Source: Haplodiscus bocki (taxonomy: Eukaryota). Taken from it: a DNA stretch of 64,000 nt. Position numbers and translations under genes: made by a program. The notes under the pieces were generated by a model that was not told the DNA's origin, did no database searches, and saw nothing but the letters and a program-made list of their open reading frames with translations. The DNA lies in assembly GCA_965655095.1 (NCBI GenBank), contig OZ296648.1, forward strand, positions 57,412,001 through 57,476,000. The letters are read 5' to 3'. Positions 8,921 to 9,420 of this stretch are shown in pieces; within the stretch, counting starts at the first letter, position 1; each line of letters starts with the position of its first letter.

Positions 8921-9420
8921 CGGTCTATCTCATCCTCGGCATAGAATTACGGATCTCCCTCAGCGGACATAGCGTGAATTGCGTGTTCGTCTAATGAATA
9001 GACCACAATTAGTATAGCTGAATACGCAAAGATAATTCGTAGGAGTTTGACTACATCCTGCCATTTCATCTGGTTAAGACCACATCCAATTTTTGGTATG
9101 GCAATCGTTGAAACTCCGTGCATTGTAGCATGTGGTTGCATATTTTGCAATGTTGTGGCGAGAGTCTGTGGGTCAGGTTTATCCGAATACTTCTCCTCTG
9201 TCACAAAGATATAGATATATCGTCTTGATGAAGAGTCCCAGAAGGGGAATACTTGGTCTTTAAGAAGGTTGGCTTGTCTACAGGTTCTACTTGGTCGCGG
9301 AACTCTTTCTGATAAGAACTGTGCAAACCCTTTGCTCATCTGAGCGTCTGCGGAAATACAATGTCCAATTGATTTGGGTTGTTCGAGTTACGAATTTTCG
9401 TTACCGTAGACTATTTGCAA
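8921..9420 (-). pseudogene. TARG1/OARD1 (Poa1p-like) macrodomain within pol, between protease and RT
   Basis: SIGHCISADAQMSKGFA...RYIYIFVT.EKYSDKP...L..M..HA..HGVSTIAIPKIGCGLNQMKWQDV aligns by eye to TARG1 SLAHCISEDCRMGAGIA / RYIYYLITK / MPRIGCGLDRLQW. In frame with the upstream pol segment apart from one stop at 9388-9390. Confidence 0.9.

Follow-up and report, generated by a model that had tools for sequence, protein, structure and literature searches.

The question raised by this locus is whether a retroelement of Haplodiscus bocki carries a genuine TARG1/OARD1-type macrodomain in its pol gene and, if so, whether the domain is a working enzyme and what it would do for the element. The window, which is the whole stretch of 64,000 nucleotides that was analysed, contains the element whose features are listed below in window coordinates.

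83..1345, minus strand: TRAF-like gene encoding a coiled coil and MATH domain; no RING or zinc finger detected; multicopy
1927..4262, minus strand: env, class III gB-like, broken; Pfam PF24664 (Monjiviricetes fusion)
5984..6547, plus strand: antisense open frame of 187 aa between pol and env; no Pfam match
6880..8134, minus strand: integrase core, SH3/p58 C-terminal part and pol tail, frame-shifted
8140..~8920-8925, plus strand: inverted segment with the remaining linker and the N-terminal half of the reverse transcriptase (RT), corresponding to residues 379-640 of the relative P0124 (87% identical); several stops
8921..8991, minus strand: start of the macrodomain-to-RT linker; stop at 8949-8947; ends at the inversion junction
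8992..9420, minus strand: TARG1/OARD1-type macrodomain, from Pfam and TARG1 alignment with limits from the P0005 model; in-frame stop at 9390-9388
9421..9860 (bounds approximate), minus strand: protease-to-macrodomain linker of about 170 aa; frame change near 9600; no Pfam match
9861..10249, minus strand: pol start and aspartic protease region; the catalytic D-T-G segment of the relatives is absent from this copy
10225..10231, minus strand: slippery heptamer T TTA AAC just 5' of the gag stop, with pol in the -1 frame
10222..11573, minus strand: gag, broken; Pfam Retrotrans_gag (E 1.4e-4) and tblastn with seven natural gag proteins (41-54%)

The macrodomain and the element in the window

The first-pass annotation had recognised a TARG1-type domain in the pol frame, and the presence of a macrodomain of this type at 9420-8992 on the minus strand was confirmed. 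The minus-strand frame 9387-8947 matched Pfam Macro (E 7.7e-7; 29.5 bits, cut-off 22) and aligned with the human TARG1/C6orf130 chains across 128 residues (E 1.6e-17); the identity was also borne out by a Foldseek match of the model of a relative. The limits were taken from the structural model of that natural relative, P0005: the fold opens at 9420 with its first strand, upstream of the in-frame stop at 9390-9388 and exactly at the upper bound previously given, and the last strand ends at 8992. Between the window domain and that of P0124, 20 of 146 residues differ.

Counted along the alignment with human TARG1, the Lys84 column of the window copy holds Glu (VTE, codon GAG, 9198-9196) and the Asp125 column holds Asn (GLN, codon AAC, 9075-9073), which are the residues and codons reported earlier. 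Both members of the catalytic pair are therefore replaced in this copy, and the pattern published for TARG1, TKx(30,35)Px[IL]GxGxD (PMC6397177), found no match in it. Stops and frame changes occur throughout the element. Given the Glu and Asn at the catalytic columns, the stop inside the macrodomain, the inverted RT half and the loss of approximately 2 kb of pol, the window copy is a dead, decayed relic that would carry out none of the functions proposed below.

The macrodomain had been placed between the protease and RT. This order was read in uninterrupted relatives, whose pol frames of 1,750-1,850 aa run protease-linker-macrodomain-RT-RNase H-integrase; in P0103 (1,827 aa), for example, the protease occupies residues 28-117, the macrodomain 300-444 and RT 655-777, followed by RNase H and integrase. 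P0103 and P0124 both show the Ty3/gypsy order PR-RT-RH-IN, and their RNase H and integrase domains are of gypsy type. The macrodomain does not follow directly on the protease, since about 170 residues with no Pfam match intervene, and in the window the RT half has been inverted to the plus strand. Residues 641-1308 of P0124 (YxDD, RNase H and the integrase zinc finger) are absent, and from 8134 integrase continues on the minus strand. The inversion belongs to the window copy, since in the contigs of other copies the macrodomain leads directly into the RT linker; the window was consequently rejected as a record of the native domain order. Among the joints listed, the joint 8921-8139 was found on opposite strands in other copies in 4, 6 and 6 contigs of runs X1, X2 and X3, respectively, X2 and X3 being one sample; it was not among the joints listed for run X6.

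Paired LTRs were sought as direct repeats of at least 80 bases or self-matches in the window, and neither was found; the 3' end of the element lies beyond the first base of the window. The gag proteins of relatives are about 480 aa long and have a CCHC-like knuckle. Several further regions drew attention. The antisense frame is acidic and proline-rich, and it is also open (188 aa) in an independent locus, L005 (3794-3231, minus strand). Upstream of gag, at 11599-12335 (minus strand), there are two broken frames that by eye appear to be two copies of one domain of about 100 aa; they had no Pfam match, and the region is covered by many other copies. Two frames of 111 and 124 aa lie between the antisense frame and env (4591-5287, minus strand), at high depth and with no Pfam match. 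Upstream of the element, 13303-13464 is a short repeat of very high depth with loose ends on both sides. Finally, RNase H and integrase of P0103 are separated by a spacer of about 300 aa (residues 1000-1260), which is deleted in the window and had no Pfam match.

Retention and constraint of the domain in the family

Relatives were sought among longer proteins; 271 were found, and the best 120 of these were examined (89 at 75% identity or above and 31 at 55-75%). The first-pass annotation had named two findings that would tell against it, a family consensus that lacked the catalytic residues and ADP-ribose binding, and the absence of the domain from other copies, and neither was observed. In these best 120 of 271, the Lys84 column holds Lys in 83 of 89 close and 31 of 31 distant copies, the Asp125 column holds Asp in 81 of 89 and 31 of 31, and the two occur together in 106 of 120 (75 of 89 close and 31 of 31 distant); the proposal that the family encodes a pseudo-enzyme was rejected on this count. 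Four clusters comprise 498, 617, 854 and 201 members. Among 56 further cluster members that were listed, 27 had the macrodomain, 22 were downstream pol fragments and 7 were gag; Lys was present in 23 of the 24 macrodomains that cover its column and Asp in 26 of 26. Every copy seen that spans the region has the domain.

The TARG1 pattern was matched by 9 of 12 pol frames of at least 1,700 aa and 13 of 16 of at least 1,300 aa, and YIDD was present in all 12 of the longest group. The whole pattern was matched by only 68 of the best 120 of 271 long relatives, many of which are decayed. The residues of the distal ribose and phosphate sites are also present in the family: in the close copies (n = 89, of which 8 do not cover the N-terminal columns) His32 was found in 77, Cys33 in 80, Ser35 in 72, Thr83 in 84, G121 in 79 and G123 in 85, and the corresponding counts in the distant copies (n = 31) were 30, 30, 30, 29, 29 and 28. 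Glu at the Lys84 column was seen in 2 of 89 close copies and in 4 of 25 close representatives that cover it. It recurs in several unrelated decayed copies (P0178, P0180, P0185 and others), which may be due to a mutational hotspot or to a sub-lineage.

Constraint was assessed with 35 key columns, chosen because 80% or more of 97 non-family TARG1-like proteins conserve them. Comparison of subfamily A with subfamily B showed 33 of 35 key columns kept, compared with 69 of 101 others (p = 0.001); for subfamily A and a third lineage, the figures were 27 of 35 and 32 of 100. Since the key columns include core-packing positions, their retention demonstrates constraint on the fold and the site, not on catalysis. 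The macrodomain is 74-75% identical between A and B, the flanking linkers 73-75% and RT 94-95%. Within subfamily A the catalytic columns were kept at 0.93 and 0.91, the median column at 0.92; this is expected under decay and gives no support for catalytic constraint. Overall, the fold, residues and position of the macrodomain are established, as are its retention and its constraint, and it is a family-wide part of Pol in an env- and TRAF-carrying gypsy family.

The family departs from TARG1 in the adenine pocket, at Asp20 and Ile44. The Asp20 column, which is adenine-binding, holds Ser in 108 of 120 family copies compared with Asp in 78 of 98 non-family rows; as Asn or Ser stands there in 19 of those 98 rows, Ser is not diagnostic of loss. 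The Ile44 column holds Phe in 113 of the best 120 of 271 family copies, and the first loop is two residues longer than in TARG1. These departures are fixed family traits and not the product of decay, and with the pocket remodelled in this way the binding of ADP-ribose may be weaker or altered.

In the AlphaFold2 model of P0005, confident prediction was confined to the macrodomain (residues 299-441, mostly at pLDDT > 90) and a helical stretch that follows it; the mean pLDDT for the whole model was 57. The predicted structure has the minimal ALC1-class macro fold. Its best Foldseek match was the TARG1-ADP-ribose complex 4j5s (E 1.6e-12, rmsd 2.0), and the top eight matches were all TARG1, with DarG next; the alignment behind the model included TARG1-like proteins of other organisms, which favours such a match. 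An atlas search with the macrodomain returned generic Macro clusters (0.91-0.92).

The linker of 170 aa between protease and macrodomain (window 9421-9860) was as conserved between the subfamilies as the macrodomain itself (73-75%), and is for that reason probably a folded domain. By eye it resembles a degenerate dUTPase fold. Pfam gave no match even with the E limit raised to 5, the best atlas value, 0.82, is no more than a lead, the model has pLDDT < 50 in this stretch, and the linker profile had no match in eight other macrodomain-bearing polyproteins; the dUTPase assignment was accordingly not adopted.

Accompanying genes and TARG1-type domains elsewhere

The pairing of the macrodomain with TRAF and env genes had been singled out as the notable part of the locus. 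A class III gB-like env (PF24664, E 1.1e-19) does lie downstream of pol on the same element, and env is multicopy, with 75 long relatives and clusters of up to 1,758 members. The closest env relative and the macrodomain-bearing Pol P0001 are on contigs of the same size, 17,197 bases. For the TRAF gene 335 relatives were found, of which the best 120 of 335 were listed; in the window this gene is nearly intact while pol and env are wrecked. It has no RING and is possibly a dominant-negative decoy.

Co-occurrence was scored by counting proteins from contigs of exactly equal size as lying on one contig. On this key, 11 of 104 subfamily A pol contigs coincided with one of 119 TRAF contigs, compared with 1 of 71 for subfamily B (Fisher p = 0.029), and env-TRAF coincidence was seen for 2 of the 8 closest env proteins compared with 0 of 67 others (p = 0.01; about 0.05 expected by chance). 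The natural env P0487 maps to 4262-1927 and the natural frame P0462 to 1999-216, and their overlap shows that env and TRAF are colinear in other copies. In locus L005, colinearity with the window extends from integrase to 5094. The pairing is thus supported, indirectly, for subfamily A and doubtful for subfamily B. The rarity of TRAF on B contigs, when the macrodomain is present in all three lineages, indicates that the two cargoes are not obligately paired.

We rated the recurrence of the domain in unrelated gypsy polyproteins as more telling than the TRAF/env pairing. An exhaustive search gave 1,840 representatives, the best 150 of which were listed; 38 of them, mostly chosen for length, were scanned, and seven were retroelement polyproteins with a TARG1-type domain. 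In P0245 and P0297 it is C-terminal to the integrase domains, in P0314, P0315 (from the sawfly Athalia rosae) and P0318 it lies between RNase H and integrase or after RNase H, and in P0303 and P0326 it follows the protease. All seven keep the Lys and the Asp. Three of these other polyproteins match the family over a long stretch of RT/RNase H, where they share 28-32% identity with it. In P0315, two stretches resemble TARG1, and both lie between its RNase H and integrase. P0314 carries a bacterial MAG label but has the appearance of a eukaryotic gypsy pol, and is probably contamination. Five other proteins (P0217, P0250, P0252, P0254 and P0266) have TARG1-like domains fused to a DNA ligase III-type ligase and BRCT domains.

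The macrodomain of P0124 is 38% identical to frog OARD1, 30-37% to the other pol macrodomains and 24-30% to four phage proteins. In a tree of 121 macrodomains (131 columns, quick search) the 19 family rows group together (SH-aLRT 85), but 61 of 118 inner branches are open and the tree singles out no donor, long-branch rows (P0230, L001 and L004) being included. A phage origin was not favoured, as the best 20 of the 35 matching phage records were at 23-30% and none of four had the TARG1 pattern. Capture of TARG1 into Pol looks recurrent from these comparisons, and the simplest reading would be repeated capture from animal TARG1 genes. Metagenome scans gave 99 pattern matches with the window macrodomain, none of which was confirmed, and three short loci with P0124, none covering the macrodomain core plus flanks together. 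Viral contigs gave no match.

Among characterised proteins, the closest is human TARG1/OARD1/C6orf130 (4j5q, 4j5r, 4j5s, 2l8r, 2lgr and 2eee; ALC1-like class), with which the modelled fold agrees and most family copies share His32, Cys33, Ser35, Thr83, Lys84, Pro118, the GxG loop and Asp125. The family domain differs in being embedded in a pol polyprotein, where it is known from sequence and a model, and in the Ser, Phe and loop insertion described above. The macrodomain of the DarG antitoxin (5m31, 5m3e, 5m3i; NF048014) is of the same class, has the catalytic lysine and was the second-ranked structural match; the family domain lacks the C-terminal part of DarG, no DarT partner was seen, and membership of the DarG family was rejected at 34-43 bits against the NF048014 cut-off of 250.

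Coronavirus Mac1 and the alphavirus nsP3 macrodomain are MacroD-type and use another mechanism, whereas the family domain is TARG1-type with the Lys/Asp pair. By analogy, these RNA-virus macrodomains are most likely what the family domain works like: the available text of PMC9503650 describes them as polyprotein-embedded hydrolases proposed to act against host transferases. The same text, a survey of viral NAD and ADP-ribose domains, names retroviruses only for 2H domains.

Retroelements with ADP-ribose-processing cargo have precedents. Teleost epsilon-like endogenous retroviruses carry macro-domain genes (Basta et al. 2009, via the consulted part of the review PMC4977317); these too are env-bearing LTR retroelements, but they are Retroviridae and the macrodomains are described as additional open reading frames. 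Gypsy elements of Ectocarpus have a NADAR domain of unknown role in the N-terminal part of Pol, so that an ADP-ribose-processing domain is found in a similar place, although its fold is unrelated to the macrodomain and the sections seen of PMC12477816 do not mention env or TRAF. The NADAR of E. coli acts on guanine-linked and not uracil-linked ADP-ribose (PMC13036486, in part). The Ty3/gypsy 'ancient errantiviruses' with a gB-type env resemble the window family in gag-pol-env layout, PR-RT-RH-IN order, class III gB-like env and high copy number, as far as the portions consulted of PMC13524379 describe them. The words 'macro', 'ADP' and 'TRAF' do not occur in its main text as available, and in seven supplements only species names matched; the window family adds the macrodomain, the antisense frame and the TRAF gene. 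Term look-up in the accessible text of PMC2774666, PMC8195603, PMC3417536, PMC5408684 and PMC7729036 gave no mention of macrodomains in retroelements. No paper describing a TARG1-type domain in a Ty3/gypsy Pol was found in a literature that covered few subscription papers or Repbase reports; the recurrence of the domain in gypsy polyproteins makes an earlier notice in those sources quite possible.

Proposed function and alternative explanations

For the working members of the family, the leading proposal, to which we give about even odds, is that the macrodomain is an active, packaged TARG1-type hydrolase that would counter host ADP-ribosylation of the element. The domain would be made within Gag-Pol by a -1 frameshift at the slippery heptamer and would enter the particle with RT and integrase, beside the genomic RNA and nascent cDNA. 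The heptamer at the gag stop makes such a Gag-Pol route into particles plausible, and from it and general gypsy biology we infer frameshifting and packaging. There the eraser would strip ADP-ribose put by host transferases on the element's own components, and would work like RNA-virus macrodomains and DarG against an ADP-ribose-based restriction. Hydrolase activity is predicted, and the substrate and the host enzyme are guesses; candidate substrates are uracil in genomic RNA, thymine or ends of single-stranded cDNA intermediates, and acidic residues of Gag and Pol. The chemistry would follow TARG1, with the Lys84 equivalent attacking C1'' and the Asp125 equivalent resolving the adduct, the roles assigned to Lys84 and residue 125 of TARG1 in the parts seen of PMC6397177 and PMC7050489. 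As reported in the available portions of the respective papers, TARG1 reverses thymine-ADP-ribose in DNA, for which Lys84 is required (PMC8501950), and uracil-ADP-ribose in RNA (PMC13036486). The putative TRAF decoy would be a second, separate anti-host cargo in subfamily A.

The same active enzyme might instead be a housekeeping aid that clears ADP-ribose left by repair PARP1 on single-stranded gaps and ends while the element is being reverse-transcribed and integrated, which would let synthesis and gap repair finish. The residue and constraint evidence fits this equally well, but most gypsy elements replicate without a TARG1-type domain, host TARG1, if present, could do the job in the nucleus, and the scattered pol positions and the accompanying TRAF decoy are more suggestive of conflict cargo. 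It is a real but minor possibility, and draws on the finding that PARP1 marks single-stranded DNA where Okazaki fragments are unligated and at telomere overhangs, and that TARG1 takes the mark off (PMC11102865, part seen). The remodelled adenine pocket throughout the family, the P0245 macrodomain C-terminal to integrase in another element, and the inclusion of both readers and erasers in the ALC1-like class (PMC7050489, sections available) would all suit a reader that attaches to ADP-ribosylated chromatin or to sites of DNA damage and anchors the replication complex there, like the chromodomain of other gypsy elements. Such a reader needs no Lys84/Asp125 pair, yet the pair is kept in three lineages down to about 45% identity, and in this family the domain sits before RT, far from integrase; the idea is unlikely.

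It is likewise quite unlikely that the domain hydrolyses O-acetyl-ADP-ribose or strips host signalling proteins, sparing the element's nucleic acid, and so damps stress responses together with the TRAF decoy. Pol is a low-abundance, particle-bound product and a poor vehicle for a cytosolic effector, and the macrodomain is carried in all three lineages, including subfamily B with its single TRAF coincidence. What speaks for this role is that the TRAF gene, without RING or zinc fingers by Pfam, is linked to subfamily A, and that TARG1 hydrolyses O-acyl-ADP-ribose esters and frees whole polymers from proteins (PMC7050489, likewise in part). A captured host exon serving as neutral folded filler in pol would explain why macrodomain identity between the subfamilies equals that of the linkers; it is very improbable, since the active-site columns are selectively kept where the rest has diverged to about one third identity and the domain is in every region-spanning copy seen.

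A broader form of the packaged-eraser proposal is conceivable and would be a bold one, to be held tentatively: animals would hold LTR retroelements in check by attaching ADP-ribose to their bases, either uracil in RNA or thymine in cDNA, and Ty3/gypsy elements would repeatedly and independently have captured TARG1 as a packaged antidote. This restriction would be a eukaryotic parallel of the DarT anti-phage system, with the present family, its pocket re-tuned and a TRAF decoy added, as an advanced case. That the domain turns up at four pol positions, among lineages whose RTs are about 30% identical, allows such a reading. According to the part of PMC13036486 that was available, there is as yet no evidence for RNA base ADP-ribosylation in humans, and the role of base-linked ADP-ribosylation in animals, and its use against retroelements, is an open question.

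The finding would be of much greater interest if the domain proved to prefer base-linked ADP-ribose. The macrodomain is small and assayable, and its substrate preference could be read with existing probes. With seven of 38 scanned proteins being retroelement polyproteins, transposons may account for many 'OARD1-like' annotations in animal genomes. The residues of the intact relatives, and the presence of the same enzyme at other positions, hint at a conflict between hosts and retrotransposons over ADP-ribose, and a selfish element that keeps a constrained TARG1-type enzyme in its particle-bound polyprotein would be indirect evidence that the mark matters to its replication.
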